Below, piece after piece: positions 45,595 to 61,628 of a DNA stretch of 61,628 nt. How positions within the stretch are numbered: position 1 is the stretch's first letter; every line of letters begins with the position of its first letter. The position numbers and the translations under genes were made by a program. The notes under the pieces were generated by a model that saw only the letters and a list, made by a program, of their open reading frames with translations, was not told the origin of the DNA and searched no databases. The stretch lies in the UHGV virus genome UHGV-1709118; one strand, 5' to 3'. The DNA comes from a virus.

Positions 45595-45798
45595 ATGAAA
45601 AAGACTTTTGAGTTCTATGCTTGCTCACCTGTTAAGACATGGCGAAACAACTACCAGGGAGAAAGTTGGCAGTGGGCTAAAGTTCAATGGTTTCGCTTTC
45701 CTTCTGGTTTGCGCAAGTGCTTAGTCTTTCCTGATGGTCAGGCAATCAAGATTGAACTTTGTAAGGTTAAAAATAAAAGAGAGGTTGGAGAAGTATGA
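45595..45798 (+). CDS. hypothetical early protein
   Basis: 67-aa ORF with RBS aaaggagg. Confidence 0.45.
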   Translation: MKKTFEFYACSPVKTWRNNYQGESWQWAKVQWFRFPSGLRKCLVFPDGQAIKIELCKVKNKREVGEV

Positions 45799-46010
45799 AG
45801 AAATACTGGATAGACAATGAATGTATGATAGATTTTATTGAAATGTATTGTGAGGGTAAAAGCTTTCTATGGAGATGCTTCTTTGGTTGGAGAAAGACTT
45901 CTTTCAAACCTAATGGAGACTTGCACTGGAGAGCTTACATTATACCAAAGAGAATATATCAGAAAGCATTAGTCTTGGCTAAGAAGTATGATGAGTATGA
46001 AGTAGTATGA
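45795..46010 (+). CDS. hypothetical early protein
   Basis: 71-aa ORF overlapping previous stop. Confidence 0.45.
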   Translation: MKKYWIDNECMIDFIEMYCEGKSFLWRCFFGWRKTSFKPNGDLHWRAYIIPKRIYQKALVLAKKYDEYEVV

Positions 46011-46252
46011 TGGGAGAAGAGGTAAGCTTAGCTTATCTCTTTTCTTTTGTTTAATATACTTGTTATAAACGAATGTCTTCGTTTTACAAGGCAACTTTCC
46101 GAATCAGTATACCACAAAGTCTGCTCAAAATCAATAGTCAAAATAGCTAAATTTAGAGAGAGAATTGGGATCCCGAATTGTGCAGTATACCTATTGACCT
46201 ATTGCGGCAAGTATGCTATTATATAATTACAAAAGGGAAGGAGATAAAACAA

Positions 46253-46438
46253 ATGAAGAACATCAAGAAGATCATTGGTGTTAAGATGGACAAAGCTAAC
46301 AAGGCGATCCTTGACAAGTGGAAGGAATGAATCAAAGAAGAGGGCCGCGACAAAGAAAGCAAGAATAACTTCGCTAACTACTACGCTAACTCTTATGAAG
46401 AGTATCAGCAGATTTGGGAAGTGGTTGAATGTTTGTAA
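46253..46438 (+). CDS. small ORF interrupted by a single in-frame TGA (46328-46330); possible readthrough or two short ORFs
   Basis: promoter and RBS upstream; 25 codons, TGA, then 36 further sense codons in frame. Confidence 0.25.
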
Positions 46439-46507
46439 AAAAAAGTCTTGACAAGAAGCTCAGTCTGTGGTATTATATAATCAAGATAAAGAAAGGGGAA
46501 ACAAAAG

Positions 46508-46840
46508 ATGACTAACAAGGAATTATTCGACAGTCGGTACACCGCAACCTACTATGAAAGCGCTTATGTGCTTCACAATGGAGACTTGACTCTCTACTAT
46601 CCCAACTGCGGTTATGACCCTGAGAAAATCATGGTCTGGAAGATCACTGCTGAGGACTACCGCTTTTATGGCAAAGGCGCTCTGAAAGAACTGCTGGAAG
46701 TTCTTTACAAGGAAGCTGCTCCTGAGCTGGTGGCTCTGGTTGATAGTAAACTCCGGTTGGCAACCGATGATGAGGAATGTGCTACGCTTGTTAAACACAA
46801 GTATCCCAACGACAAACAGCACTACATTGATATGTGGTAA
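46508..46840 (+). CDS. hypothetical early protein
   Basis: 110-aa ORF after promoter TTGACA-17-TGgTATTAT. Confidence 0.5.
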   Translation: MTNKELFDSRYTATYYESAYVLHNGDLTLYYPNCGYDPEKIMVWKITAEDYRFYGKGALKELLEVLYKEAAPELVALVDSKLRLATDDEECATLVKHKYPNDKQHYIDMW

Positions 46841-46861
46841 AAAGTAAAGGAGCTGATTAGA

Positions 46862-47083
46862 ATGATAACAATCCTTCACAAAGCAGGTATTGCTTTCAGG
46901 GGAGAATATCTCCGGGAAGCTTGCAGGAAGAACTACGATTGGCTTACTTTAATGTATGCCGTTGAAGATTATAACCGCGCTGTGAAGCGTTACTACAAGT
47001 ATGTTTCTCGCCACCACGCAGTTATCCTTAACAAATATCCTTCTGGCGATGTTATCGCTCTTGAAGAAGGGGTAATTCTATAA
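46862..47083 (+). CDS. hypothetical early protein
   Basis: 73-aa ORF followed by terminator 47084-47104. Confidence 0.45.
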   Translation: MITILHKAGIAFRGEYLREACRKNYDWLTLMYAVEDYNRAVKRYYKYVSRHHAVILNKYPSGDVIALEEGVIL

Positions 47084-47199
47084 GGGCCGCAAGGCCCTTT
47101 TTCTTTTTGTTATATGCTTATATGGTGAAACTTCTAGGCTTCTAGCAGTAAAAAAAAAAAAAAATAAATAAATAAAAATTTTTTTTGTTCAATTTACCT

Positions 47200-47228
47200 A
47201 TTGACAGCAAAGCAAAAGTATGGTATAA
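47200..47228 (+). promoter_or_regulatory. early promoter followed directly by GC-rich hairpin (no ORF)
   Basis: TTGACA 47200-47205, 17-bp spacer, TGgTATAAT 47220-47228; hairpin 47238-47272. Confidence 0.5.
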
Positions 47229-47462
47229 TAATTGCGGCGGCGCGCACACGACCATGGCCTCCCAGTGTGCGCCGAAATTCTGTCAATACGCAAATTGCAC
47301 AAAAATTTAGAGGAAAGTTTGGTGATTTTGCCCAGAAGTATTCATCCCGAAATGGTGTTTGTTTATAAAAAGTATAGCGGCAAAATATCATCAAAATTGA
47401 TTATTGAATTTCTTAAAAATTTTTGTTATAATAATTACAGAAAACAAAAGGAGGTCAAAAGT

Positions 47463-47624
47463 ATGACTGAATACCGTGACTGGTTGGTAGTTTTCCCCAA
47501 TGGTGGACAGATACACTTTGATAACAAGGGTATCGCAATGCGGAACGCGACTCGCAAGAAAGGCTCTGTTTATGAGTGTCATCTGGAAGAGAATGGGAAT
47601 GAAACTCTCATTCATATCTTTTGA
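47463..47624 (+). CDS. hypothetical small protein
   Basis: 53-aa ORF from ATG 47463 with RBS aaggagg; track ORF 47232-47624 N-terminal extension spans promoter/hairpin and is rejected. Confidence 0.4.
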   Translation: MTEYRDWLVVFPNGGQIHFDNKGIAMRNATRKKGSVYECHLEENGNETLIHIF

Positions 47625-47639
47625 TAGGAGGTATTATGT

Positions 47640-47819
47640 ATGAAGCAAACTTATTCTATCTATCATGCTGGCGATGAAGAAATTATCGGGCCTTTTGATT
47701 CCTTTTCATTGGCAGAGGATTTCTTTCATAGGTTAGCTCAGTATGCTACTACAATGTATTACTTGGTAGATGATTCTACTGGTGAAATTCTTCTTGATAT
47801 TGAAGAAATTAAGGCTTGA
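47640..47819 (+). CDS. hypothetical small protein (59 aa, not in ORF track)
   Basis: ATG 47640 preceded by ataggagg; open to TGA 47817-47819. Confidence 0.35.
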   Translation: MKQTYSIYHAGDEEIIGPFDSFSLAEDFFHRLAQYATTMYYLVDDSTGEILLDIEEIKA

Positions 47820-47877
47820 CATTTGGGCCTTACCGTGGTATAATTACCATAGAAACAAAGGAAAGAGGTTGATACTT

Positions 47878-48333
47878 ATGACTGACAAGATGTTGGCTTT
47901 TGATATGGACGGCACTATTGCTGACCTGTATGGAGTTAATGGTTGGCTGTCTAAACTGCGGAAGGAAGATGCAAGCCCTTACCTGGAAGCTAAACCCATG
48001 TGGGATGTGGATAAGCTCAACGAGCTTATCAATAAACTAAAGCAGGCTGGTTGGGAGATTGCAATCATCACTTGGCTTTCTAAAGAAAGCAGTCCTGAGT
48101 ATGCAAAGGCTGTGCGAGAAGCTAAAAAGGCTTGGCTCTTGAAATGGGGTTTCCCCTATGATCATTTTCATGGTCTAAAGTATGGAGCTACTAAAGCGAA
48201 TGCTGTTCGTAGAAAAGCATCTAAGGCAATTCTTATTGATGATAATAAGAAGGTTCGTGATAGTTGGCATTTGGGAGAAACTGTCAATCCTGAAACTTGT
48301 GACATCATTGATTTTTTGGCTTCCCTGCTTTAA
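47878..48333 (+). CDS. HAD-superfamily phosphatase, 5-prime(3-prime)-deoxyribonucleotidase-like
   Basis: N-terminal FDMDGTIADL motif (DxDGT); start at ATG 47878 after promoter and RBS. Confidence 0.55.
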   Translation: MTDKMLAFDMDGTIADLYGVNGWLSKLRKEDASPYLEAKPMWDVDKLNELINKLKQAGWEIAIITWLSKESSPEYAKAVREAKKAWLLKWGFPYDHFHGLKYGATKANAVRRKASKAILIDDNKKVRDSWHLGETVNPETCDIIDFLASLL

Positions 48334-48353
48334 GCAGGGAGTCAAAAAAGTTC

Positions 48354-48382
48354 TTGACAAATGAGAAAAAATCTGGTATAAT
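48354..48382 (+). promoter_or_regulatory. early promoter
   Basis: TTGACA 48354-48359, 17-bp spacer, TGgTATAAT; leader acagaaattaagaaagaggt. Confidence 0.55.
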
Positions 48383-48415
48383 GAGTACAGAAATTAAGAA
48401 AGAGGTAGATGCAAC

Positions 48416-49123
48416 ATGAGCATTGATAGGCGCAGACATTATGTTCTGCTTCTGGACACTGAGACAGCAAACACCATCACTGACCAAAAAGGCCGATTAG
48501 ACATGACCTCAGTTCTTGTCTATGATTGCGGGTGGTGTGTTATGGACACAAGAGGAAATATCTACAAGGAACAATCCTTTGTTAATCGAGATATTTTCTT
48601 TGATGAAAGTGAGCTTATGAAATCCGCCTACTATGCGGAAAAGATTCCCCAGTATCTGGAAGATATTCGACAGGGTATCCGGCAAGTAGCTAACACTTAC
48701 CAGATTCGACAGGCTATGCTTGCAGACATGGCAGAATATGGTATTACAGAGGTAGTTGCCCACAATGCAAGATTCGACCTGAACGCATTGAATTTACTTC
48801 AACGCTGGACTACCAAAAGTAAATATCGCTATTGGTTCCCCTATGGTACCGATATTTGGGATACTCTCAAAATGGCAAGAGACGTTATTCTAAAGATGCC
48901 TACCTATAAAAGGTTCTGTGAACAACACGGTTTCTTAACCAAAACTGGTAAACTCTCAGCGACAGCAGAAAATTTGTATAGATTCATCTCCAAAGACCCT
49001 ACTTTTCAGGAAGAACATAAAGGTCTTGACGATGTGCGAATTGAGCGAGAGATTATGGTCTACTGCTATCGGCAAAAGAAGAAAATGCGGAAAAAACTTT
49101 TTGAAAATCAAAAAACCGCTTGA
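48416..49123 (+). CDS. DnaQ-like 3-prime-5-prime exonuclease (DEDDh)
   Basis: Exo motifs LLLDTETAN, VAHNARFDL, EHKGLDDV. Confidence 0.6.
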   Translation: MSIDRRRHYVLLLDTETANTITDQKGRLDMTSVLVYDCGWCVMDTRGNIYKEQSFVNRDIFFDESELMKSAYYAEKIPQYLEDIRQGIRQVANTYQIRQAMLADMAEYGITEVVAHNARFDLNALNLLQRWTTKSKYRYWFPYGTDIWDTLKMARDVILKMPTYKRFCEQHGFLTKTGKLSATAENLYRFISKDPTFQEEHKGLDDVRIEREIMVYCYRQKKKMRKKLFENQKTA

Positions 49124-49232
49124 CAAAACAAAAGGAAAATGATATAATATAAGAGAAGTGAGGGAGATAAAACCCTCCCCACTTCCTTAACAATTAGGGT
49201 AGCGACCTACCGCACAGAAAGGAATTGATATT

Positions 49233-49589
49233 ATGACTAACGAGAAGAAGATTACTAACAAGGGCGCCCTTCAGTATGTTCTGGACAACTGCGAGATTCC
49301 TGCCGACGTTCGTGCCAAGATTGAGATTCTGCTCCATCAGCAGGAGAACAAGAGCCGCGGTAGTGGTAAGCCTACTGCAACTCAGACTGAGAACGCACGT
49401 CTGATTGAGGTGATTGCCGACACTCTGCCCAAGGGCGAAGCTTTCACCATCTCCGACATTACCAAGACCATTCCTGAGCTGAACGGCTTTACCCCTCAGA
49501 AGGTTGGCCCCATGCTCAAGAAGCTGGTTGAAACTGGTCGAGCCACCCGTGACACCAACAAGGGCAAGGCATACTACACTATGGTGTAA
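49233..49589 (+). CDS. hypothetical protein, paralog of 55318-55734 (possible winged-helix)
   Basis: shared motifs with 55318 ORF (QTEN...LI...KTIPEL...TPQ...PM.K.LV..G.A..DT.KG.A); about 50 percent GC. Confidence 0.5.
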   Translation: MTNEKKITNKGALQYVLDNCEIPADVRAKIEILLHQQENKSRGSGKPTATQTENARLIEVIADTLPKGEAFTISDITKTIPELNGFTPQKVGPMLKKLVETGRATRDTNKGKAYYTMV

Positions 49590-49648
49590 TAATTAAATAA
49601 AGAGGGGCATTAAGCCCCTCTTTATTTTCTCAAAAAGGATGGTGTTTA

Positions 49649-50011
49649 ATGATAGATGAGACTAGGGTTAAACATCTTCAAAAGGTGTTAGACCTTGATA
49701 GAGAACAAGCTTTAGCAGTTATTGCCGATGATGAAGCAATAGATAAAGGTGCAGATCTTTTCCCACTTACTGATGAACAAAAGAAAGTAGAAAAGAAAAT
49801 GCGGTTATCCGGCAAAGAGAAAGGCAAGTATACTATGAATGCTCCCCGACAGCGCAAGGTTGACAATGACAAACATCGCTTGATTGAGATTATTGCGGAA
49901 TCTCTTGAACAACTTGAAATTGAAACTACCATCAATAACCCAGAACGAGAAATTGAGATAGTTTTTAATGAAAGACGTTTCAAAATTACATTAAGCGCTC
50001 CTAGAAAATAA
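49649..50011 (+). CDS. hypothetical protein, paralog of 55759-56148
   Basis: shared DKG...LT-EQ-KV-KK ... LI ... NPER-I ... F ... TL motifs. Confidence 0.5.
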   Translation: MIDETRVKHLQKVLDLDREQALAVIADDEAIDKGADLFPLTDEQKKVEKKMRLSGKEKGKYTMNAPRQRKVDNDKHRLIEIIAESLEQLEIETTINNPEREIEIVFNERRFKITLSAPRK

Positions 50012-50263
50012 TAATAAAACCGGCTTATTTTTTATAGGCCGGTTTTCTTTTTTGCCCAATACTTTTTAATGGCAAATGTTTGACGGCCCGCGCATGGTCA
50101 AGCGCTGCCGCATTTCAATTATACCAGGTAATCCGACTTTTGTCAATGGGCAAACCGCACAATTATTTGACTTTTTGTTTTCCCAAAATTGGTGATTCTG
50201 CCTATTGATTTTTTTATTAAAATTTTATATAATATAATTGTTCCAAGGGAAAGGAGAAACAAA

Positions 50264-50458
50264 ATGAAGATTAATTATAAATCTTTCAGCGTGGAAGTTT
50301 TTGGTGAAAATATTTGGGGCCAAACCTATCTGAACAGAGTAGGCTTTGATTCTGAGGAAGAAGCCGATAAGTTCATTGAATCTCTGGAAAAGGAAGAAGG
50401 AATTTATTCGGCAATTAAAATTGTAAATACAAGTTACAATTTCAGAAAAAACCCTTGA
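50264..50458 (+). CDS. hypothetical small protein
   Basis: ATG 50264 with RBS aaaggaga. Confidence 0.4.
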   Translation: MKINYKSFSVEVFGENIWGQTYLNRVGFDSEEEADKFIESLEKEEGIYSAIKIVNTSYNFRKNP

Positions 50459-50515
50459 CAAACAAACCAAGACGTGTTATAATAAACACAGAAATTAAGA
50501 AAGAGGTTGATAATT

Positions 50516-50737
50516 ATGAAAGCAAGCACTAACACAAAAATCAATATCGACATCACCGGCATCTGCATGTGGTTCCTCTCTTCCCTCTTCATTTGGCTGG
50601 GCTGGAAAGTTCTGGTGGCTCACTTCGGCTTGCCTTACTTTACCTATCTGGAAATCTTCGCCATGCGTATGGGGCTGGATGGTCTTGCAAGCATCTTCCG
50701 CAAGAAAAAAGAAGTGGAAGGCGAAAATAAGGCTTGA
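50516..50737 (+). CDS. small membrane protein
   Basis: 73-aa ORF with hydrophobic core; promoter TTGACA 50455-50460. Confidence 0.45.
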   Translation: MKASTNTKINIDITGICMWFLSSLFIWLGWKVLVAHFGLPYFTYLEIFAMRMGLDGLASIFRKKKEVEGENKA

Positions 50738-50762
50738 CAAACGTCAAGCCGAATGGTATAAT
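50734..50762 (+). promoter_or_regulatory. early promoter with palindromic -35 region
   Basis: TTGACA 50734-50739 inside palindrome ggcttgac-aaac-gtcaagcc (50731-50750); TGgTATAAT 50754-50762. Confidence 0.5.
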
Positions 50763-50786
50763 AATAACAGAAAGAGGTTGATGTAA

Positions 50787-50930
50787 ATGATTTCTACTAT
50801 TGCTCTGGCTTCCCTGGCTGCTATTATGATGGTGAAGGTGTTCGTTGCGGTTGAGCGTGAGGATTACCGCAAAATGTTCGCTAGCGGATTTGAGTTCGCT
50901 CTTCTGCTTCTGACTTTGGCTAATATTTAA
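50787..50930 (+). CDS. small hydrophobic peptide (47 aa, not in ORF track)
   Basis: ATG 50787 after agaggttgatg; open to TAA 50928-50930. Confidence 0.3.
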   Translation: MISTIALASLAAIMMVKVFVAVEREDYRKMFASGFEFALLLLTLANI

Positions 50931-50943
50931 GGAGGTAAATATA

Positions 50944-51192
50944 ATGAGAATTTATTCTATTAAACATCTGTTCGACAAAGAAGTTGCTGGTTTTTATCGA
51001 GAAATGAAAGAAAGCGTTGAAACAAAAGAAGAAGTAGAAAATGCCGTTTATCTGGTAATGGGTATGCAGGTTATGGCAAGTATTATCGCCGAAGGAAGTG
51101 ATGAAGAGGTTCTTGCCATTGAACATGAAACTTGGGATTATTGGATTCCAAAGTTTAAGAAACTTCTGGAAAATCTTCCTGAAAAGACTTGA
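50944..51192 (+). CDS. hypothetical early protein
   Basis: 82-aa ORF with RBS aaggaggt. Confidence 0.45.
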   Translation: MRIYSIKHLFDKEVAGFYREMKESVETKEEVENAVYLVMGMQVMASIIAEGSDEEVLAIEHETWDYWIPKFKKLLENLPEKT

Positions 51193-51217
51193 CATACGTC
51201 AAGTTCTATGATATAAT
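51189..51217 (+). promoter_or_regulatory. early promoter with palindromic -35 region
   Basis: TTGACA 51189-51194 inside palindrome acttgac-atac-gtcaagt (51187-51204); TGaTATAAT. Confidence 0.5.
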
Positions 51218-51248
51218 AAAGCCATAATAAAGAAAGGAAGTCGATATC

Positions 51249-51446
51249 ATGACTAAAGAAGAACTTTTAAACACTTTGCAGGAGGTCGGCTATGAATGGA
51301 GCAGAACGCTCAATGAGCACAAGTATGACTACTCGGATTTCGAGTGGAAGATGCTCGGCTGGGTAGCTGGTGAATTGATTGACCATTTCGATCAGGCAAT
51401 TGATTCAATTCGTGATGAACTTCAGGAGGAGGAAGAAGAAGAATGA
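51249..51446 (+). CDS. hypothetical acidic small protein
   Basis: 65-aa ORF. Confidence 0.45.
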   Translation: MTKEELLNTLQEVGYEWSRTLNEHKYDYSDFEWKMLGWVAGELIDHFDQAIDSIRDELQEEEEEE

Positions 51447-51691
51447 GAATGACAGAAAGAATCGAGAGATTTTTCAATCTTGATGAAGAGGAGAAGGAAA
51501 TTCTCAAAAAGGCTAGTTATATTCTCTGCGACATGGCAGAAAATGTTGATGGTTTAGGAAAAATTTCCTTAACTTATGAGAATTTTACTGAACCATTCGC
51601 AAAAACTCGGAGTTATGATGAAGGGAATCTTTATGATTTCTCATACCTATTAGCTGTTCTTTCTAAGGCAGAAACAATTGAAATTGAATAA
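51443..51691 (+). CDS. hypothetical early protein
   Basis: 82-aa ORF overlapping previous stop; terminator 51695-51719 follows. Confidence 0.45.
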   Translation: MRMTERIERFFNLDEEEKEILKKASYILCDMAENVDGLGKISLTYENFTEPFAKTRSYDEGNLYDFSYLLAVLSKAETIEIE

Positions 51692-51776
51692 AAATAAGGG
51701 CCTTTGGCCCTTATTTTTTACTTGACAGATTTTTCTTTCTATGTTATAATAACAATAGAAAAGGAGATGAAGCAAA

Positions 51777-51980
51777 ATGACAGATTTTGCAAGAACTGAA
51801 ATTCTTCTTAAAGCTTTACAGGAAGCAGGAAGATACATGCGGAAATATTTACCCGCAGAAATGCCATTAGGCGAAGATGCTGATATTACAAGATACTGTT
51901 TAATAAATGGTAATCAAGACCCGGAAGGCTCTAAGTTTGTAGAATACTTCATTCTTAAAGCATTTGATAATTATAAGTAA
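51777..51980 (+). CDS. hypothetical early protein
   Basis: 67-aa ORF after promoter TTGACA 51722-51727 and RBS aaggaga. Confidence 0.45.
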   Translation: MTDFARTEILLKALQEAGRYMRKYLPAEMPLGEDADITRYCLINGNQDPEGSKFVEYFILKAFDNYK

Positions 51981-52226
51981 GGGCTAAAAGCCCTTACTTT
52001 TTTATTTCTATATTTATTATAAACAAAAGTCAAGTGATAGTAAAGTTTGGCGGCGCGTTGATGGCTGACATGCGCCGCAATTTAATTATACCTCAAGCCA
52101 CGCCTTTTGTCAAGAGCAAAAGTGCATAAAAACAAGGCAGACAAAAATCCCGAATTTGTGCATTTCGCCAATAGACAAATAAGACCTGCCGTGTTATACT
52201 ATAATCACAGTAAGGGAGGAGATAAC

Positions 52227-52871
52227 ATGACAGAGATGGAACAGACTGTTCTTCAGTGGCTTGAAGATTTGGCGATTGACCCTTCAATGACCGATTGGGA
52301 CATTCAGAACCGGATGAAAGAGATTAAGCTTGGAAGCGAAGCTGCTATGGATTGCGGTTCTAGCAAGATTTGTCTCATCCCTCACAACGCCAACTTTGTT
52401 ATTAAGTGGACGTATAGCGACCCTGACGAGCTTACCAATGATGAAGCTCTGAAAGAGGTTGACATGTATAACAAAGCTGTCGAAGCAGGTTTAGGCATGT
52501 TCTTCCCCAAGACCGAGCTTTTCTGCACAATGAACGGAATCAATTTCATCAAGCAGGAGAAGATTGATTTTGCGGTTTGTGGCTGTTCCTATCAGACCTT
52601 TAAGCGGTATAAAACCAAGACCAAAACCGCAAGTGACCAGAAAGCGCAACTCATGAACAAGTGCTTCAAGAAAGCGGCTCCTAATGGGCGCTATGCAAGA
52701 AACTTAGACCCTCTTTGGGCTAAGATGGCTCTTGTTATCTATGGCAAAAGACTTTGCAAAACTCTTTGCGAGTTTGTCATTGAGAACAGAATCAATGACC
52801 TGCACGAATCCAACATTGGTTACAAAAATGACCGCCCAATCATCTTAGATTTTAGCGGTTTTGATAGATAA
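52227..52871 (+). CDS. hypothetical protein
   Basis: start at ATG 52227 after RBS aagggaggag; track ORF 52107 start lies in promoter/hairpin region. Confidence 0.45.
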   Translation: MTEMEQTVLQWLEDLAIDPSMTDWDIQNRMKEIKLGSEAAMDCGSSKICLIPHNANFVIKWTYSDPDELTNDEALKEVDMYNKAVEAGLGMFFPKTELFCTMNGINFIKQEKIDFAVCGCSYQTFKRYKTKTKTASDQKAQLMNKCFKKAAPNGRYARNLDPLWAKMALVIYGKRLCKTLCEFVIENRINDLHESNIGYKNDRPIILDFSGFDR

Positions 52872-52876
52872 AAGGC

Positions 52877-52905
52877 TTGACAAAGACCGGACTGTATGGT
52901 ATAAT
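52877..52905 (+). promoter_or_regulatory. early promoter
   Basis: TTGACA 52877-52882, 17-bp spacer, TGgTATAAT. Confidence 0.55.
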
Positions 52906-52937
52906 ACAGGTACAATAAAAGAAAGGAAGTAAAAAAC

Positions 52938-53336
52938 ATGAAAGCTACTGGTATCATTCGCCGCATCGATGACCTGGGTCGGGTGGTCATCCCCAAGGAA
53001 ATCCGCCACAATATGCACATCTGGGAAGGAGACCCTTTGGAGATTTATACTGCTTCGGATGAAATTGTTCTCCGCAAGTATGTTCCATCCGCAGAAAACA
53101 AGGCTTCTATTGCTCAGAAGTGGTTAGAGGACAATGCTCATATGTTATATGGCACTTCTGCAAAGTTCAGTATTGAGGGCAGAACTACTGTTTGCGAAGT
53201 TATCAGCAATAATCATCGCCTGACTGGAAAAGCAACAGCCACAACAAATGACACTTTCATTCCCGCGGTTGGTATGGTTATTGCTTATTGCCGAGCCGTT
53301 GGTTGGACTATTCCCAAAGAACTTATTGAGGATTAA
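52938..53336 (+). CDS. AbrB/SpoVT-family transcriptional regulator-like protein
   Basis: N-terminus GIIRRIDDLGRVVIPKEIRHNMHIWEGDPLEIY...IVLRKY matches AbrB swapped-hairpin domain signature. Confidence 0.6.
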   Translation: MKATGIIRRIDDLGRVVIPKEIRHNMHIWEGDPLEIYTASDEIVLRKYVPSAENKASIAQKWLEDNAHMLYGTSAKFSIEGRTTVCEVISNNHRLTGKATATTNDTFIPAVGMVIAYCRAVGWTIPKELIED

Positions 53337-53658
53337 AAAATTGCAAAAAGGCTTGACAAAGCTCTTCTTCTGTGATATAATACAAGTACAGTCAAGGGAG
53401 GTGATAAAGTGCTTTAGTGGTAAACAAATGAATAAAAAGGAGTAAAGCGAATGATAGATATTACTAGACACCCGCCGCCATGCTAACCCAATTATTACAG
53501 AATTTTGTTTGCACTGTTGTTTTACATGAACGAAATAAAACCATATAGTGCTGCGGAGATTTTCTTAGCTTTTTCTATTGCTCCAAAGTAATAAACAACA
53601 AGAAAGCTATCAGAGTAGGCGCCGCTCTGATAAAATAAAACAAAAGGAAGTTTTACAA

Positions 53659-53946
53659 ATGACAAAACAGGTATTATTTCTTGACCTTGAAGGAACTGTC
53701 CATGCCGGTTTGCTTTTGGATGATGGTAACATTATCTGCGGATGTTGTGGTTCTTTGATAGAACTTGGTGATTATTTACTACTCCATGTTTACAAAGAGT
53801 GGGTAGATATTGAGGAAGAAATCTGTGGGGATGATTTACTCCTTAAAGATTTCCAGAGAAAAGTAGACAGCTTATCTGTTAAAGAGATAGAAAAAATTCT
53901 TACTGAAACAGATGCAAGTAATTTGATAAAATCTCTTGACAAGTAA
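53659..53946 (+). CDS. hypothetical Cys-containing small protein
   Basis: ATG 53659 after RBS aaaggaag; preceded by about 250-nt ORF-free leader. Confidence 0.4.
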   Translation: MTKQVLFLDLEGTVHAGLLLDDGNIICGCCGSLIELGDYLLLHVYKEWVDIEEEICGDDLLLKDFQRKVDSLSVKEIEKILTETDASNLIKSLDK

Positions 53947-53990
53947 GTAAAAGCATGATATAATAACAATAGAAAACAGGAAAGGAATTG

Positions 53991-54524
53991 ATGATTATGT
54001 TCTCTATCAAAAATTGTAATAGCGTTCTGGAAGGTGCTGCTCAGGTCGTTAAACTGTTCGGGGATGAACCCTTCACTTCTGATAGATATGATGCGGCTCG
54101 TGGTAAGGGACGCTCTAAGGCGGAAACTCTCTTCAACCACAACATCATCAAAGTGGTGGGTAAAGCGCCGGTCTATGATACAAATTGGCCTAGATGCAGA
54201 GAAACTGCTCCTTATGTAACAAACCGTGCCGGCGAACTTCTTATGAAGTATAAGGAATACAGAGAGCTGCCGGTAGCGGCAAAGGAAGCTCTAATTGCAG
54301 CCAATGGTGGGGAAGAGTTGGGCATCCACTATGATAGAAGTGATATTACTATCTGCTATCGAGATACTTTTGCCTTTAATGCAAGCGGGTATCAAGAATA
54401 TCTCCAGGAAGTTTATACGAATCTTCTTTTTCAGATAGAAAGTAAGAAACAGGAAGTTCTTAAAATGGAGGATTGTTTTGGTAAGGTAGTTAAAGCATTT
54501 CAAGCAAATGCAATGAAGTTATAA
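53991..54524 (+). CDS. hypothetical protein
   Basis: ORF track 53988-54524; promoter TTGACA-TGaTATAAT overlaps previous gene end. Confidence 0.45.
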   Translation: MIMFSIKNCNSVLEGAAQVVKLFGDEPFTSDRYDAARGKGRSKAETLFNHNIIKVVGKAPVYDTNWPRCRETAPYVTNRAGELLMKYKEYRELPVAAKEALIAANGGEELGIHYDRSDITICYRDTFAFNASGYQEYLQEVYTNLLFQIESKKQEVLKMEDCFGKVVKAFQANAMKL

Positions 54525-54613
54525 AAATCTTTCACTTTGTGCAATTTATCTATTGACAAAACAAAGCAAAGATGCTATAATGAATACAGAAATTAAGAAA
54601 GGAACTGATAGCT

Positions 54614-54835
54614 ATGCTGTGTATGAAGAACGTGTTCAATGTCATGAAAGGTATCACTCGCGTAAGAGATAAGTTCAGAGGAAAAGGGTTCACTTTTTCT
54701 GAGTATAGCACCGATGACTATCAGAATTACTTACGTTATTTACAGACTGCGTTTGAATTAAAAACTATGGACAAAGAGCAGGAACTTGACAAATTGAAAG
54801 CTAATCTTGACAAAGTGGAAAAGGAAATGAGATAA
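54614..54835 (+). CDS. hypothetical small protein
   Basis: 73-aa ORF; bidirectional-type terminator 54841-54867 follows. Confidence 0.45.
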   Translation: MLCMKNVFNVMKGITRVRDKFRGKGFTFSEYSTDDYQNYLRYLQTAFELKTMDKEQELDKLKANLDKVEKEMR

Positions 54836-54881
54836 AAAAATGAGGGATTTTTCCCTCATTTTTTTTTGTACATTTTGCCTA

Positions 54882-54910
54882 TTGACAAAACCGCAGCTTT
54901 ATGGTACAAT
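54882..54910 (+). promoter_or_regulatory. promoter driving ORF-free GC-rich hairpin transcript
   Basis: TTGACA 54882-54887, 17-bp spacer, TGgTACAAT 54902-54910. Confidence 0.5.
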
Positions 54911-55020
54911 GGCGCGGCGCCCACGGCTGTGGAGCGCCGAAATTTCAATTATACCACGCGGCACAAAATTTGTCAAGAGTTAAACTGCACAAAATCTATT
55001 TGGGAAAAATCCCACTTTTT
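54911..55020 (+). ncRNA. candidate small RNA (5-prime GC hairpin, weak terminator)
   Basis: promoter immediately upstream; hairpin 54911-54939; gggaaaaatccca + T-run at 55001-55020; no RBS-ATG ORF. Confidence 0.3.
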
Positions 55021-55317
55021 GTGCAATTTGCCTATTGCAATTTGGGTGAAATCTGATATAATAAATAATGTCAGGAGGGAGTAGCCCAAGAAATCCTAGG
55101 GCGGCCGACTTAGAGAAAGTATAGGAAGTAAACGGAATACATCAAGTGGTAAGTCTTATATCATGTGGTAATTGTTATTGCCCAACATGCTCTGGAAGCC
55201 GTAAATCTTGTGAAAAGTTTGCGAAACCTCTTGACAAACCCCAAGAAACATGCTATAATAAGCATGTAATCAAGAGAAGGACAAACTCTTAAAAACCAGA
55301 AAGCGAGATAGGTGTTT

Positions 55318-55734
55318 ATGGAAAATACTAACAAGAGAATTACTAAGCGTGAGCGTTTCCAGTCTTTGATTGAGCTGGTGGAACTGTGCGAAGGCCGTGA
55401 GGATGAAGGCTTTGACTTTGAGGGTCTGACCGATTTCCTTTCCAATGAGATTCGCCTGCTGGACGCTAAGAAGGGTTCCAATTCCCGCAAGCAGACTGCC
55501 CGCCAGACTGAGAATGAGCATTTTAAGGCTCTGATTGCCGAGCGGTTGACCGAAGAGGGCATGACTATTGCAATGCTCCGCAAGACCATTCCTGAACTGG
55601 AGGATTTGACTCCCCAGCGTATTGCCCCTATGTGCAAGGCTCTTGTCTCTGAGGGTATTGCTTACAAGGATACCTGCAAGGGTATCGCCCACTTTTACAA
55701 GGCGCAGGCCGTAGTAGAAGAGGAAGAGGGCTAA
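55318..55734 (+). CDS. hypothetical protein, paralog of 49233-49589
   Basis: see paralog; ATG 55318. Confidence 0.5.
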   Translation: MENTNKRITKRERFQSLIELVELCEGREDEGFDFEGLTDFLSNEIRLLDAKKGSNSRKQTARQTENEHFKALIAERLTEEGMTIAMLRKTIPELEDLTPQRIAPMCKALVSEGIAYKDTCKGIAHFYKAQAVVEEEEG

Positions 55735-55758
55735 GGCCCTCTTCCCTAGAAGGGAGGT

Positions 55759-56148
55759 ATGTTTTTGGATAAAGCAAAAGAAGCAATCGCAAGAATCCAA
55801 GCCGGCATCAAATGCAGCTATGAAAAAGCAGTAGAAATCTATAAGACAGATTGCGAGGTTGACAAAGGCATCCCGCATGAATGGGATTTGACCGAGGAAC
55901 AGCAAAAGGTAGCAAAGAAATATACTATTACCGGGCAACATACTAAGAAGCATGACCGCAAGGCTCCGGTCAAAAGAGAAAGAAAAGAGAACCCCACTAA
56001 AGCAAATTTGATTGCGGAACTTGCAGGTTTTCTTGAATCTTTGGGGATTTGTGACGTAAAAATTGCAAATCCTGAGCGACAGATTGCTTTTTCTGTGGAT
56101 AATAACGCCTTTGAGCTGACTTTAGTTCAAAAAAGGGCCAAAAAGTAA
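55759..56148 (+). CDS. hypothetical protein, paralog of 49649-50011
   Basis: see paralog; RBS gggagg. Confidence 0.5.
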   Translation: MFLDKAKEAIARIQAGIKCSYEKAVEIYKTDCEVDKGIPHEWDLTEEQQKVAKKYTITGQHTKKHDRKAPVKRERKENPTKANLIAELAGFLESLGICDVKIANPERQIAFSVDNNAFELTLVQKRAKK

Positions 56149-56205
56149 AGTTTTTGGCCCTTTTCACTTAAAAAAGAGCTAATTTTGACGAAAAAGGTGA
56201 TGTAA

Positions 56206-56550
56206 ATGCAACAAAAGAAAGAGTATTTGTATGTAGGTCACTATTTTGACATAGAAGGCAACTACATTCTCAAAATAGGCACTACTAACGATTTAGCCCG
56301 GAGACAGCAAGAGCATACCAGAAATTATAAGCGTTCACCTAAGTTTACTATGCCGAAATCCGCTAAGTTTGTCTATGATTGGCATCTGCCTTTATCTAAG
56401 TATTCAACTTTGCGGTATGAGGATAAGAATCGTGCAGCATGGCAGGAATCTTCTATCGGCGAATTTGTCCGCAATGACAGATTTTGCTGTAAGCAAAAGC
56501 CCAAGAAAGTAAAGGTTACTATCCGCAAAACTTATGAGATCGAGTTATAA
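56206..56550 (+). CDS. GIY-YIG-like nuclease domain protein
   Basis: YLYVGHY...ILKIGTTNDLARRQQEH resembles GIY-YIG motif (GIY ... YIG-T-N-L-R ... E/H). Confidence 0.4.
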   Translation: MQQKKEYLYVGHYFDIEGNYILKIGTTNDLARRQQEHTRNYKRSPKFTMPKSAKFVYDWHLPLSKYSTLRYEDKNRAAWQESSIGEFVRNDRFCCKQKPKKVKVTIRKTYEIEL

Positions 56551-56563
56551 GGAGGAAGAAAAC

Positions 56564-56782
56564 ATGGTTGTTATTAAAAAGCAGTGCGAAGTTCACTTAT
56601 CCCAGGAGGAAATTGACTGTCTTGAAAAAGCAGCTGACATTCTCAATGAAATTTGGTCAGTAATGCCTGCTGAAAGTTATATTGGTGATAAGAAAGTAAT
56701 GTATGCTGAGGATGTCGGAGAAATGTCAGATAATCTGCAAGACTTGGCAACTATCGGAGAAAATATTGTGGTTGAAGATTAA
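56564..56782 (+). CDS. hypothetical small acidic protein
   Basis: ATG 56564 after RBS aaggagga. Confidence 0.4.
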   Translation: MVVIKKQCEVHLSQEEIDCLEKAADILNEIWSVMPAESYIGDKKVMYAEDVGEMSDNLQDLATIGENIVVED

Positions 56783-57101
56783 CGGTTACCAAAGGATAGT
56801 GGTTAATAGCCACTATCCTTTTTTATCCCTATACTTGTTATAAGCAAAAGTAAAGTAATAACAAAACTCAGCGGGCCGCACTTGGTGGATGCGGCCCGAA
56901 TTCGCGTCAATACACATTTTCCACAATTTTTCTGCTTTTGATTTGTACAATTTTACTTATTGACATTTTCCTAAAATTATGTTATTATATAATCACAAAA
57001 GGAAAGGGGATTTAAAAATTTCAAAAAAATAAAAAAGGTCTTGACAAACCAGGGCAAAGATGCTATAATGAATACAGAAATTAAGGAAAGAGGTTGATAG
57101 T

Positions 57102-57377
57102 ATGAATGAACGCAGAGACTTCATTGCAAAGAACTGGGGTGAGGATGTTCTTGAAGCTATTGATAGCTGTGAGCCGTTAAACATTACCTTTGGCCAGTTT
57201 TTGGACAAGTGCGTTGCTTGCGGTGGCAACTGGGGCGGTATGCTTCTAACTGGCCTGAAGAAGTTGCGGCCTGAGATTTGGGAAGCCATTCCCCAAAATA
57301 TGGGTCTTTATGCTTGGCAGTGCATCTGCAATACTTTAATCCTTGCTGGTGTGGTTATGGAAGAAGAAGAGGGCTAA
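57102..57377 (+). CDS. hypothetical early protein
   Basis: 91-aa ORF after promoter TTGACA-TGcTATAAT and conserved leader. Confidence 0.45.
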   Translation: MNERRDFIAKNWGEDVLEAIDSCEPLNITFGQFLDKCVACGGNWGGMLLTGLKKLRPEIWEAIPQNMGLYAWQCICNTLILAGVVMEEEEG

Positions 57378-57410
57378 AAAGCCCTTTTCCATAAAGAAAG
57401 GAAGGTAGAA

Positions 57411-57692
57411 ATGGAAATTAGAAAACCTACGAATTGGTTGGATGCTAAAGGGATGCTTGACAAAACACTACAAGCAAGATCTACAGTAATCACTGAAGCC
57501 CTTGGGCAAATTATGTTTAATCTTCTAAGTGCCGCAGAAGATGGAAAATTTGCTACTACTATTAATCTTCTAGAAGATACAAAAATTATTACTCAAATAC
57601 TTGAGGAAGCAGACTATAAGGTTCAATTTCTTAAACCAAATGGTGAATACTCACAATATATTGTTTGCTGGGAAAAGGAGGACGAAGAATAA
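57411..57692 (+). CDS. hypothetical early protein
   Basis: 93-aa ORF. Confidence 0.45.
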   Translation: MEIRKPTNWLDAKGMLDKTLQARSTVITEALGQIMFNLLSAAEDGKFATTINLLEDTKIITQILEEADYKVQFLKPNGEYSQYIVCWEKEDEE

Positions 57693-57883
57693 TGATTATC
57701 AAAATTACTGACCGCTACAACGGCGATTTCGCGAAGTTTGATTCTTTGCAGAAAGCCTATGACTACTTCATGGACTATGACAAAGAATGTGAGGGAGATT
57801 GGTGGCCATTGATTACTATTGATGGGGCTTGGGTTCCTCTGGAAGAGTTTTTCGTGATGTATAAAGAAAAGGGGTGCAAATGA
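57692..57883 (+). CDS. hypothetical small protein, tandem paralog A
   Basis: MIIKITDRYNGDFAKFDSLQKAYDYF... similar to next ORF. Confidence 0.4.
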   Translation: MIIKITDRYNGDFAKFDSLQKAYDYFMDYDKECEGDWWPLITIDGAWVPLEEFFVMYKEKGCK

Positions 57884-58074
57884 TAATGACTATCAAAATT
57901 ACTGAGTTATACGATGATGATGTGGCAGAGTTTAAGTCTCTGCCAGAAGCATGGGCTTATTATTGTTATTGGGAAAAAGAATCTAAAGGGAAATGGTTGC
58001 CACTGATATTTATCAATAGAAAGATGGTATCACATGAAACGTTCTATAAGATGTGTAGAAAGGTGGGTGTTTAA
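57880..58074 (+). CDS. hypothetical small protein, tandem paralog B
   Basis: MTIKITELYDDDVAEFKSLPEAWAYY... similar to previous ORF. Confidence 0.4.
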   Translation: MIMTIKITELYDDDVAEFKSLPEAWAYYCYWEKESKGKWLPLIFINRKMVSHETFYKMCRKVGV

Positions 58075-58542
58075 TTGTCTTTACTCTTGTTATTCATTGG
58101 TCTTTCTATCGCCAATGTGGTTTTTTCGACAATCAAAAGCATTGTAACTATTAACGGCACACCATTTTCCGCAAGCATGATTTCCGCTTTATACTATGGT
58201 TATTATAACATAGTTCTTATTTACACAGTCGCGGATTTCCCTCTGTGGCAGAAGGTATTAGTTACCTTTGGCTGTAATCTGGTTGGCGTGTATGCGGTTA
58301 AGTGGGCGGAAGCAAAAGGAAGAAAAGAAAAGTTGTGGCGAATTGAGGTTACTGTCCCTAGTGAATTTACAAAACAACTTCACGAAAGATTAAACCCAAT
58401 CCCGCACAACTATATTGAAAATGTAGGTAAATATTCAATTTTTAATATTTACTGTGCTACACAAATGGAGAGTAGCCAAGTCAAGAAAATTCTGGTGGAT
58501 TACAATGCCAAATACTTTGTGACAGAAACTAAAGAACTCTGA
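58075..58542 (+). CDS. membrane-associated hypothetical protein
   Basis: 155-aa ORF (TTG start) with hydrophobic N-terminal half; terminator 58532-58570. Confidence 0.4.
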   Translation: MSLLLLFIGLSIANVVFSTIKSIVTINGTPFSASMISALYYGYYNIVLIYTVADFPLWQKVLVTFGCNLVGVYAVKWAEAKGRKEKLWRIEVTVPSEFTKQLHERLNPIPHNYIENVGKYSIFNIYCATQMESSQVKKILVDYNAKYFVTETKEL

Positions 58543-58623
58543 GAATACTCAGAGTTCTTTTTTTGTTTTTTCTAAAAAATTATGTTATAATATATATAGA
58601 AATTAAGGAAAGGAGCTTTTCTA

Positions 58624-58740
58624 ATGACCTGTGAATTATTAAAGGCACTTGCGGTGATTATTGAATACTGCTTAAAGCAGGATAATTGCAAAGTTTGTGT
58701 TATGCGTGATTTCTGTTCTAAGATGCCTTGTGAGTGGTAA
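58624..58740 (+). CDS. Cys-rich mini-protein (38 aa, not in ORF track)
   Basis: ATG 58624 after aaggaaaggag; CxxxxC...CxxC pattern. Confidence 0.3.
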   Translation: MTCELLKALAVIIEYCLKQDNCKVCVMRDFCSKMPCEW

Positions 58741-58827
58741 ATTACTTTAAAGATTTTAGAGATAGAAAGGCCCGTTTTAGGGTCGAAATTTCGCACGTCT
58801 AGGTCATCAGAAAAAAAATATCTGGAT

Positions 58828-59028
58828 ATGTTGAAAACTGAATTTGCCAGAAAGCTGGACTCGACTGGTCGATTAGTTATCCCTTCTAAGTTAAGAGATT
58901 ATCTAGGAATGGAAACCGGCCAGTTATTTACTTTTTATATTCAAAAAGAAGAAAATGGAGATGTGTATTTGTGTGTGAAGTGTCCTAGTAATAAAATAAA
59001 ATTTACTTTTGGTGAAAATGCCGATTGA
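58828..59028 (+). CDS. AbrB/MazE-like small DNA-binding protein
   Basis: RKLDSTGRLVIPSKLRDYLGMETGQLFTFY matches AbrB/SpoVT swapped-hairpin signature. Confidence 0.5.
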   Translation: MLKTEFARKLDSTGRLVIPSKLRDYLGMETGQLFTFYIQKEENGDVYLCVKCPSNKIKFTFGENAD

Positions 59029-59408: not shown

Positions 59409-60116
59409 TTAAAATGCGGATTCATACAAGTCATGATCGGTTGATCTAACTAACATTTTTCCAGTCTCATCTCTAAATTTGAATATTACATCCTGAAATG
59501 TACCTTCAAAAGCAAGGCGATCCGCGTGATTTAAATATTCTTCTTTAGTCATGTCAGTTTTTCTAAATTCTTTTTCTAGTAATACCATACGTTGAATAAT
59601 TTCTGGCTTATCACCAAAAATAGCGGTAGTATATTCATCAAAGATTCTTTGCTCCTCTGGAGTTAAATCTCGATAGGGTTTGCCGTTTACTGCTTTATCA
59701 AGCTTAATACCCCACTGATATTTGCGGGTTCCATAGATACCCTTGCTGATTTCATCAGCGGTAACTCCAAATCCTATCACTCCAGCTTTGGTCATACGGC
59801 GTCTTCTTTGACTATCAGTTAATTTAGCATATTGTGGCAAAGAACTAATTTCTTCTGCTATATTAGAAATAGAATTAAGAGGATATTTACGCACTTGGTC
59901 TAAATAAACTTGAACATCTTGTGATAAATCACCTTGATATTCATCAATATAAATTTCTTTTACAATAATACCTCCATATACTTCTTCATAATCACAGTAA
60001 TCTTTTAAGAAAGGCATTACTTGTGATTTCTTTTTGCTTTTAAAAAAGTTATAAGTATAACCAAACCAATCGGCTAACTCTCTTGACGTAATTTTACCTA
60101 ATTGTAATTGTTTCAT
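59409..60116 (-). CDS. helix-turn-helix regulator-like protein, divergent from early genes
   Basis: 235-aa ORF; N-terminal LGKITSRELADWFG resembles an HTH. Confidence 0.45.
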   Translation of the reverse strand: MKQLQLGKITSRELADWFGYTYNFFKSKKKSQVMPFLKDYCDYEEVYGGIIVKEIYIDEYQGDLSQDVQVYLDQVRKYPLNSISNIAEEISSLPQYAKLTDSQRRRRMTKAGVIGFGVTADEISKGIYGTRKYQWGIKLDKAVNGKPYRDLTPEEQRIFDEYTTAIFGDKPEIIQRMVLLEKEFRKTDMTKEEYLNHADRLAFEGTFQDVIFKFRDETGKMLVRSTDHDLYESAF

Positions 60117-60283
60117 TTTATTTTGTCTCCTTTTAAAAAAATTTTTTATATTTGGGCAAAACCTAATAGTGGATACTATTTATGCACTCTCTTATATTTC
60201 TCTAACGGTGTGCATGTTTGATATCTACTATCTTAATTAAATAAAATTGCTACTTTTACTTCACTACTCTACTTATAATAACG

Positions 60284-60355
60284 TAAATAAGTCATCCTTT
60301 GGATGACTTATTTACTAAGGAATAATAAATCGACCTTTGGTCGATTTATTATTCC
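60284..60355. repeat. two tandem perfect AT-rich palindromes (14- and 17-bp arms, each with ttt centre)
   Basis: taaataagtcatcc-ttt-ggatgacttattta and ggaataataaatcgacc-ttt-ggtcgatttattattcc. Confidence 0.6.
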
Positions 60356-60528
60356 ATTAACTTTTCTCTCTCACTTTCAATTTTCCCTTCAGAAATTGTG
60401 AGTTCCATTCCCCAATTTTTTCCAAATGAAAATTCAAAATAACTACTCCCCTATATCCACAATTGAAAATATTAAAAAATTATTATATAATATATATAGA
60501 AAAACAAAAGGAAAGGAATTAAAAATTT

Positions 60529-61083
60529 ATGTCTACTTATAAGGTTAATGATTGCTGTAACGCCTCTACTGCCGAGCTTAACTCTTCTTGCAACTGCAAG
60601 ACTACTATGAAGTTTGAGGACTATATTGTGGACGAGCTGCGCAAGGGCAAGTCTATGGATGAAATTATGAAGTATATCTCTGAGCGAGCTAATGCCGCGG
60701 AGTCTACTTTTAAAGCAGAGCAAAATAAAAAGAAGAGTTTTTGGTTGGTGAAGACTCCTGTTGAGGGTGATAGAGATTTCATTTTTGGTAATCTGCATGT
60801 AAAGATTAATGATGCTCTTGTTCATTTGAGTAATGGTAAGATTACTACTGAAGATTTCATTATTCTTTTGATTGAGGGTCTTTATCAGATTGCTCCTGCT
60901 ATGCGCCCTATGCTTGATGAGATTAGTCTTGATGATGATAGTATTAATCTTCTGGCTGAGAGCATGAATAAGGAATTGAGCAAGATGGATAAGCTTTTCT
61001 CTGTTGCTAAGGCTTTTAGTAATGAGACTGATGATGACGCAGAAAGAATTAATAAGTTTTTGGACTCTCTCACTCTACTGTAA
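60529..61083 (+). CDS. hypothetical protein
   Basis: 184-aa ORF; terminator hairpin 61082-61101. Confidence 0.45.
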   Translation: MSTYKVNDCCNASTAELNSSCNCKTTMKFEDYIVDELRKGKSMDEIMKYISERANAAESTFKAEQNKKKSFWLVKTPVEGDRDFIFGNLHVKINDALVHLSNGKITTEDFIILLIEGLYQIAPAMRPMLDEISLDDDSINLLAESMNKELSKMDKLFSVAKAFSNETDDDAERINKFLDSLTLL

Positions 61084-61162
61084 AAGGGGATAACCCCTTT
61101 TACAGGGGTAGGTGCGGTTGACAAGAATTGAAAATGAGTAATAGGTAGGTGAGTGCTGCGCA

Positions 61163-61275
61163 AAGCACCTCTCCATTTTAGAATATTTTAAGAGATTTTA
61201 TTATAAGCACCTCTCCATTTTAGAATATTTTAAGAGATTTTATTATAAGCACCTCTCCATTTTAGAATATATTTT
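61163..61275. repeat. 42-bp direct tandem repeat, about 2.7 copies (iteron-like)
   Basis: unit aagcacctctccattttagaatattttaagagattttattat at 61163, 61205 and partial at 61247. Confidence 0.7.
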
Positions 61276-61628
61276 AATAAAAACACTTCTCTAATTCGTA
61301 AACCCTTTCTTTTAATCTTCTTTATTTCCATTGAAAAAATAACTTTCAAGGTGATTTTCCCCACTACTTCTTTAAAAACCATTGCAAAAAATCTCTCCTC
61401 TAGTGTCTTTTGATGAGAAAAAACGCTATATCACAATTCGCCAATTAGAAAAAAAATCAACTCAAACTTTTAAACTGGCATCCTCACGAACCTATCTCCT
61501 TTCCGAAGATAATTCCTCTTTGAAAATAGAACGAATCCACGTCTTTAAAAACCGAGAGAATAAACATTTTCTCTCCTTCAAATACACTAATCCCATTGAT
61601 TTCCAAATCTGGGTAAAAGAGTATACTA

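Follow-up and report, generated by a model that had tools for sequence, protein, structure and literature searches.

What is a 42-bp sequence doing in perfect tandem next to the early genes of a gut phage? The question is raised by a 61,628-nt stretch of DNA from the virus genome UHGV-1709118 (hereafter the window, meaning the whole stretch analysed), near whose right end such a unit is repeated and for which the original prediction offered a replication origin or a protein-binding array. We favour, with about even confidence, a curved cis-regulatory array, a candidate protein-binding element that lies upstream of a small gene, ORF16x, and drifts by slippage. The alternatives rank below it in the order neutral minisatellite, replication origin, RNA leader and, last, assembly artefact, genome terminus, packaging site or partition site.

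The window comes from a phage genome. Genes for a portal (35321-36943) and a terminase-like protein (37364-39109) both lie on the minus strand, very large structural ORFs occupy the same strand between 4 and 41 kb, and from 42 kb on there are dozens of small plus-strand ORFs, many behind near-consensus TTGACA-N17-TATAAT promoters. We know of no regulatory or replication elements in this ~137-kb gut-phage family. The nearest described phage, with a portal identity of only 38%, is phAss-1, a 136-kb human-gut phage with a predicted Clostridia host (PMC10607447).

Several features elsewhere in the window are recorded here in their own right. Positions 44000-59000 have a G+C content of 37-42%, compared with 26-33% elsewhere, and carry at least 15 near-consensus TTGACA-N17-(TG)TATAAT promoters with a common leader, ACAGAAATTAAGGAAAGAGGT, ahead of small ORFs (families D1-D3 and D9), a layout that resembles a host-takeover module. 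Adjacent ORFs of 72 and 66 aa (57665-57883 and 57874-58074; D10) are paralogues, the product of a local gene duplication; their starts share about 71% of nucleotides over 85 nt. At the left edge, positions 1-2354 probably form a diversity-generating retroelement: a 154-aa ORF (212-676) is followed by an A-rich, AAC-rich template-like stretch (721-814) and a reverse transcriptase (1368-2354; Pfam RVT_1, E=2.8e-14). The template-like stretch has at its end ATTACCTCGCGCCCG, a 15-mer that recurs at positions 1-15, which would then be the variable-repeat end of a target gene beyond the left edge. A circular closure of the window, with its end joined to its start, was rejected on inspection by eye.

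The 42-bp repeat and the conserved layout of the locus

Tandem Repeats Finder (TRF), run on the whole window, reports 61163-61270 as an array of period 42 with 2.6 copies, 100% matches and no indels. Its score of 216 is the highest by far among the 55 rows for the window, which holds no second repeat comparable to it, and a generic repeat finder recovers it too, as family D8. Exactly three matches to the leading 24 nt of the unit are present, starting at 61163, 61205 and 61247, against an expectation of 0.00 from 100 dinucleotide-preserving shuffles. The two full units that had been predicted are therefore real and identical: copy 1 (61163-61204, plus strand; AAGCACCTCTCCATTTTAGAATATTTTAAGAGATTTTATTAT) is four helical turns long and has T4 tracts at offsets 10, 10 and 22, and copy 2 (61205-61246, plus strand), which matches it at 100%, is an extra copy compared with an allele such as that of relative L005. 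What had been called a partial third copy (61247-61291, plus strand) matches the repeat over its first 24 nt but then continues as ATATTTTAATAAAAACACTTCTC. Because relatives L005 and L019 contain a terminal unit with the same continuation, this segment is, by sequence comparison, the ancestral terminal unit of the array and not a truncated copy. The position at the right end of the window is correct, but that end is an arbitrary cut, since relative L004 continues into more plus-strand genes.

To find relatives, we used as an anchor the gene upstream of the array in the ORF list, ORF184 (60529-61083, plus strand, 184 aa). Its product matches no Pfam or PHROG family and yields an all-helical AlphaFold2 model of low confidence (pLDDT 66). 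It has 25 homologues at 56-92% identity, every one of them metagenomic, and we compared the flanking DNA of a dozen distinct lineages, with ORF184 proteins at 56-95% identity. These are ~137-kb human-gut phages, and an older array is found at the equivalent position in every relative recovered, with a copy number that varies. Wider searches added little: the region has no nucleotide match among INPHARED phages or PLSDB plasmids, the exact 24-mer is absent from IMG/VR, the core 16-mer of the relatives finds one true relative there along with chance matches (for example L029, within a coding region), and a scan of JGI metagenomes gave only two additional loci. A scan of GTDB genomes with ORF184 found none, the Rfam and tRNA scans of the window found nothing, and a homologue search with the ORF16x remnant returned two fragments only.

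Downstream of ORF184, all lineages share one layout: a hairpin, a purine tract, GTGCTGCGCAGAGCAC, the array, a conserved block and the ORF16x ribosome-binding site. Starting from the left, the hairpin CTGTAAAAGGGG-ATAA-CCCCTTTTACAG (61078-61105, plus strand; sequence and RNA fold) has a 12-bp stem that overlaps the TAA stop codon of ORF184 and is maintained in relatives through paired changes (AAAAGGGG/CCCCTTTT versus AAGAGGGG/CCCCTCTT). With its short T run, it looks like a bidirectional terminator. The original prediction had placed the repeats directly after a terminator; the hairpin is there, but its T run is short and the first repeat begins only after a further 57 nt or so of purine-rich DNA. 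Most of this DNA is a purine-rich, C-poor tract (61106-61152, plus strand) in which a semi-conserved GTGCGGTTGACAAGAATTGAAAAT and TAGGTGAG motif is seen across the alignment of 12 lineages, and which measures 60-110 nt in relatives. In L001 (IMG/VR UViG_3300045988_145614), TRF finds a perfect 20-bp tandem of 3.3 copies, ATGATAAATGAGAATTGAAG, within this tract to the left of the array (10579-10645), which marks the entire intergenic region as liable to new tandem duplications.

Next comes a GC-rich imperfect palindrome, GTGCTGCGCAAAGCAC (61153-61168, plus strand), unique in the window and conserved in all lineages, whose 3′ arm, AGCAC, is also the start of the first repeat unit. It could form a 5-bp hairpin followed by a T-rich run and has a terminator-like score in L012; convincing compensatory changes are absent from the alignment of 12 lineages. 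We set aside a long purine/pyrimidine hairpin centred on GCGCAG, in which pairing in the window extends over only 5 bp and the substitutions seen in relatives are non-compensatory.

The array proper consists of 2-6 imperfect same-strand direct repeats per lineage with the core (AGCAC)TTCTCTATTTTA. In relatives it contains almost no G (1-6 in 85-202 nt), and its A+T content of 76-88% exceeds the genome background of about 70%. It is followed by a conserved non-coding block of about 70 nt, TCTCTAATTCGTAAACCC...CTTCTTTATTTCCATTGAAAAAATAACTT..AAGGTGA (61289-61354, plus strand), that ends in the ORF16x Shine-Dalgarno sequence (61348-61354); about 30 nt of it are invariant where the flanking proteins are only 56-80% identical. 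The sequence AAGGTGATTTTAAATG that comes after the invariant part is the ribosome-binding site and start codon of ORF16x. Around this start (about -50 to +35; L007 6868-6925, window 61320-61354), pairing of CAUU with the start codon (AAUG) and of ACUU with the Shine-Dalgarno sequence (AAGG) is possible and could form a translational hairpin, a weak one without covariation.

A profile built from 28 distinct repeat units, run over the window and some 200 kb of related DNA, matches this locus alone and only its plus strand. Within the window, neither the core nor the GC-rich element nor the downstream block occurs a second time. A reading of the cores as a phage-specific promoter class was dropped, as all three elements are unique to the locus.

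Copy-number variation of the array and decay of ORF16x

Near-identical genomes differ in this array. L004, a 137,652-bp contig that encodes an identical ORF184, aligns over positions 1-1383 to window 60129-61628 with all other columns identical and one clean 118-bp gap that takes the whole array. The absent segment (61170-61287) ends in the short homology CAC(C/T)TCTC, so its coordinates can be shifted by a few bases. Because L004 lacks the array and is otherwise identical over 1.5 kb, the array is dispensable. Two further genomes encode an identical ORF184 protein: L005 (ERR11473693) has one 42-bp unit plus the terminal unit, and L006 (scaffold ERZ28663801), from a different sample, carries the 42-bp unit at least 2.3 times before its contig ends. 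Within this near-identical group the number of cores is 0, 2, at least 3 or 3+1. L001 (IMG/VR) has two overlapping contig ends that fall within the array and differ from each other by one 31-bp unit. At the level of sequence, the 2.6 perfect copies in the window show a recent gain of one unit, by slippage or unequal crossover, inside an older array.

The gene downstream has suffered too. ORF16x encodes 160-163 aa, belongs to no family and is intact in seven lineages (L007, L009, L012, L016, L019, L020 and L024; for example L019 1098-1580 and L007 6911-7402), where its coding strand is unusually G-poor, with a GC skew of about -0.33. Aligned with the intact genes of L019 and L007, the window and L004 both show a 22-nt deletion that takes the ATG and an 11-nt deletion that shifts the frame. 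What is left in the window is a remnant (61355-61628, plus strand) that runs past the window end. Because the gene is disrupted there, 61276-61628 is to be read as a pseudogene remnant, though it is apparently non-coding and G-poor. L005 is disrupted by a 20-nt deletion and L001 by an early stop and further deletions, so that, from the alignments, ORF16x is disrupted independently in three ways (window/L004, L005, L001). The deletions lie between short direct repeats. On the 3′ side of ORF16x, a 136-aa membrane-like ORF (ORF136) is followed by a terminator.

Perfect tandems coincide with a dead gene in these genomes: those of 100% identity occur only in the window and L001, both with a dead ORF16x, and the complete loss of the array (L004) is also in such a lineage. 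These observations fit the idea that the array serves ORF16x and drifts once the gene is lost, a link that spans four disrupted and seven intact lineages, too few for a statistical test.

Helical phasing and the competing readings of the array

The repeats are built on the helical period. Core-to-core spacings range from 19 to 70 nt and cluster at 21-22, 31 and 42-43 nt, and TRF on the relatives with an intact ORF16x gives nested periods: an approximately 10.5-bp (10-11-bp) sub-repeat, TATTTTAAAA, and higher-order units of 21, 31, 39, 42 and 43 bp, at 76-81% identity. This nesting identifies the 42-bp unit of the window as an old four-turn unit, freshly duplicated. In all ten lineages tested, gaps between tracts of four or more T are almost all 10-12 or 19-24 nt, a phasing reached by 0 to 7 of 2000 shuffles, depending on the lineage, and the best eight of 6150 sliding windows for 10-11-bp phasing in the window all lie on the array. 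As the array is built from ~10.5-bp sub-repeats in 21-, 31- and 42-43-bp units, its T-tracts are predicted to lie on one helix face and the DNA to be strongly curved. In a Bolshoy/Trifonov wedge model, which we coded ourselves and whose ranks are to be taken as indicative, the array ranks second in the 61.6-kb window for arcs of 84 and 126 bp and first for 168 bp; in relatives it falls in the top 0.02-7% of positions, with a moderate bend in some (L016, top 7%). Like known curved elements, then, it combines helix-phased tracts of at least 4 nt with a predicted bend well above the genome background.

By the same indicative ranking, the second most curved spot of the window is 56120-56200, which is conserved in relatives (L007 ~1277, L009 ~1465, L012 ~1456, L016 ~1274). 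Here phased A-tracts lie on either side of a terminator hairpin, GGGCCAAAAAGTAAAGTTTTTGGCCC, and an ORF with a T5orf172 domain (56206-56550) follows closely.

The regulatory reading of the repeat array rests on this context: a curved, one-sided array of same-oriented repeats with a conserved core adjoins the invariant block and the ORF16x ribosome-binding site. Lying between the hairpin that ends ORF184 and the ~70-nt block, the curved array would provide upstream control of an ORF16x-ORF136 transcription unit, either by activating it as UP-like bent DNA or by offering a DNA-binding protein of the phage an array of operators. It would expand and contract by slippage in whole helical turns, and in the lineage of the window, where ORF16x is dead, the constraint on it would be relaxed. 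No sigma-A-type promoter with more than 9/12 matches is found inside the array or between it and ORF16x, whereas other early genes of the phage have promoters with 11-12/12 matches. The roughly 60 nt from the array end to the Shine-Dalgarno sequence, like the array, hold only weak, AT-rich 9/12 matches, so that expression of the ORF16x unit may require a phage factor or read-through.

Candidate binders are encoded nearby. ORF235 (59409-60116), the sole minus-strand gene of the early region, is modelled with winged-helix-like domains and predicted to bind DNA; a protein search against phages returned nothing. It faces ORF184 across a 410-nt G-poor spacer (60117-60528) with two back-to-back hairpins (60283-60315 and 60319-60355). 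A GTDB scan with ORF235 found three MAG contigs, none with the array, and the labels of contigs carrying its relatives (Oscillospiraceae, Clostridium, Eubacteriales) hint at the host range; the host is probably a Firmicute or Clostridium-like bacterium. Two small proteins of the early region (52938-53333 and 58828-59028) have AbrB/MazE/MraZ folds by Pfam (MazE_antitoxin, E=1e-9; MraZ, E=3e-5) and are likewise candidates, proteins of this fold often binding arrays of short direct repeats. The regulator region of the original prediction corresponds to ORF235, with its predicted winged-helix-like protein; the repeats themselves sit upstream of the conserved gene ORF16x, a pseudogene in the window. 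The proposed protein-binding array is a reasonable reading, made plausible by the conserved orientation, the constant core, the phased T-tracts, the predicted curvature and the restriction to this locus.

The most serious rival, possible though we doubt it, is a functionless minisatellite: a slippage-prone AT-rich spacer in which repeated duplication and concerted evolution produce the repeats, the 10-11-bp period and the core alike. Helical periodicity could indeed be a by-product of tandem duplication of a 10-11-bp unit, which the shuffles do not separate from selection for curvature. Since any 10-11-bp tandem shows such periodicity, the independent evidence is the unit length and its persistence across lineages, not the shuffle counts. 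Deletion of the complete array in L004 with no other change, a copy number and unit length that differ in nearly every lineage, the small deletions between short direct repeats that riddle the neighbouring DNA of this subclade, and the confinement of perfect tandems to genomes with a dead ORF16x are all what neutral drift would leave. Against it, place, orientation, core and phase are kept where the flanking proteins have diverged to 56-80% identity, the period equals the helical repeat, and units and indels (21, 31, 42, and 118 minus flanks) are mostly phase-preserving. The distance between the conserved flanks has a weak peak at a period of 10.75-11 bp in nine lineages (Rayleigh 3.5-3.75), which is not significant after the period scan.

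The replication origin of the original prediction is unlikely. Here an initiator would bind the repeats, bend the DNA and melt an AT-rich stretch, possibly at one of several redundant origins. Same-orientation direct repeats at roughly two- to four-turn spacing, the 76-88% A+T content, the predicted curvature and the winged-helix-like protein predicted for ORF235, encoded 1 kb away, are all in keeping with it. Typical iterons are copies of one conserved sequence at regular spacing, usually about two helical turns; the phage array has 2-6 same-strand cores with spacing modes at 21-22 and 42-43 nt, though over its full range (19-70 nt) the spacing, like the unit length, is irregular. Iteron origins as in RK2, F, P1, lambda and Stx phages are defined by direct repeats bound by an initiator, a winged-helix Rep that binds through these domains, DnaA boxes and a cis-essential AT-rich unwinding element (PMC4980987; PMC7466680). 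The array resembles them in its same-orientation repeats near AT-rich DNA, in the winged-helix-type protein encoded nearby and in a repeat number that differs between related elements, as it does among lambdoid phages (PMC7466680). In contrast to them, it is dispensable: L004, an otherwise identical contig of complete length, does without it, which suggests that the array is not required in cis and is compatible with its being one of several redundant origins. The array also has no DnaA boxes or 13-mer AT-rich unwinding element. No DnaA box with one mismatch or fewer occurs in 61084-61628, and the nearest with one mismatch, at 60453, is 700 nt away and not conserved in L001. The array shows no GC-skew switch: the G-poor stretch is confined to ORF16x, after which positive skew returns. 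Within 20 kb on the left side and 10 kb on the right, no initiator, replication, partition or integration gene could be recognised, and the gene that follows the repeats is a small unrelated one, with no gene for a cognate Rep- or O-type initiator around or next to them. An origin thus has no positive support beyond the repeats themselves. Distinctly unlikely, in our judgement, is a broader proposal in which the locus is a phase-preserving control element of variable copy number, bound by ORF235 or the AbrB/MraZ-like proteins, that acts as a phage rheostat tuning an early or middle operon in whole turns or as one of several redundant bent-DNA origins.

Very unlikely is an element that works as RNA, a G-free, unstructured, U/C-rich intercistronic leader made by read-through from ORF184 that would, for example, let Rho or an RNase enter or would control the translation of ORF16x. 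The short U run of the ORF184 hairpin, the lack of a promoter found downstream of it, the near absence of G from the array in relatives and the capacity of the invariant block to fold with the Shine-Dalgarno sequence and AUG paired are consistent with such a leader. It is opposed by the second terminator-like hairpin that precedes the array, by the lack of any Rfam family and of compensatory change in the predicted pairs (0/32), by a consensus fold of only -5.9 kcal/mol, and by helical phasing, which is a property of DNA and not of RNA.

An assembly artefact, or a genome terminus, packaging or partition site, is suggested by at least 10 contigs from various assemblies that end in the intergenic region, about 50-300 nt after ORF184, and by the overlap of the two L001 ends at the array, and is extremely improbable: the 42-bp tandem recurs in the independent sample L006, so the repeat survives the test for an artefact, the array is internal in four contigs of 94-140 kb, the genes for terminase and portal lie at a distance of over 20 kb and no partition genes were found. 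The L004 junction, with shared homology of only 4-5 nt in a k=119 assembly, needs supporting reads and could not have been bridged by the k-mer assembler without them. Repeats and heterogeneity make the locus an assembly break point, not a fixed genome end.

Relation to known elements and significance

Curved DNA with phased A/T-tracts occurs upstream of bacterial and phage promoters, as in the promoters Alu156 and Bal129 of Bacillus phage SPO1 and the plc promoter of Clostridium perfringens, which has three phased A-tracts upstream. The phage array shares with these the ~10.5-bp T/A-tracts on one helix face, a non-coding position immediately upstream of a gene, a strong predicted bend and, probably, a Firmicute or Clostridium-like host. 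Unlike them, it is longer (85-200 bp, 5-13 tracts), varies in copy number, contains a conserved pyrimidine core, CTTCTCT, and has no core promoter found beside it.

Tandem 10-11-bp sub-repeats upstream of an operon also recall centromere-like arrays, such as plasmid R1 parC with its 11-bp iterons and the MraZ boxes with their 10-bp spacing, which are bound by ribbon-helix-helix or AbrB-fold proteins, and the early region here likewise has genes for small AbrB/MazE/MraZ-like proteins. In the phage, however, no partition ATPase or adaptor genes were found, and the sub-repeat is a bare T-tract with little sequence information.

The repeat number is polymorphic in otherwise identical genomes (the window, L004, L005 and L006; also between the L001 ends), as at contingency or rheostat loci. 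The sabA T-tract of Helicobacter pylori (PMC4081817), for example, is a promoter-proximal repeat that tunes expression by slipped-strand changes. The likeness lies in slippage-driven length polymorphism upstream of a gene, and the differences in the units (21-42 bp as opposed to 1-7 bp), in changes that preserve the helical phase instead of shifting it, and in the phage setting. Adaptive tuning is made less likely in the polymorphic subclade by the fact that ORF16x is a pseudogene there. As a type, phased-T-tract direct repeats upstream of a gene, with slippage polymorphism, are already known.

The finding is of modest importance. The locus is a recurrent assembly breakpoint and could also serve as a strain marker for these phages. 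More broadly, the repeat marks a conserved non-coding control region, made up of a curved array, a GC-rich palindrome and an invariant leader, in uncultured large gut phages whose early genes are almost all without known function, and the natural allelic series of 0, 2 and 3+1 units in otherwise identical genomes could be used to probe whether curved upstream DNA tunes phage gene expression.
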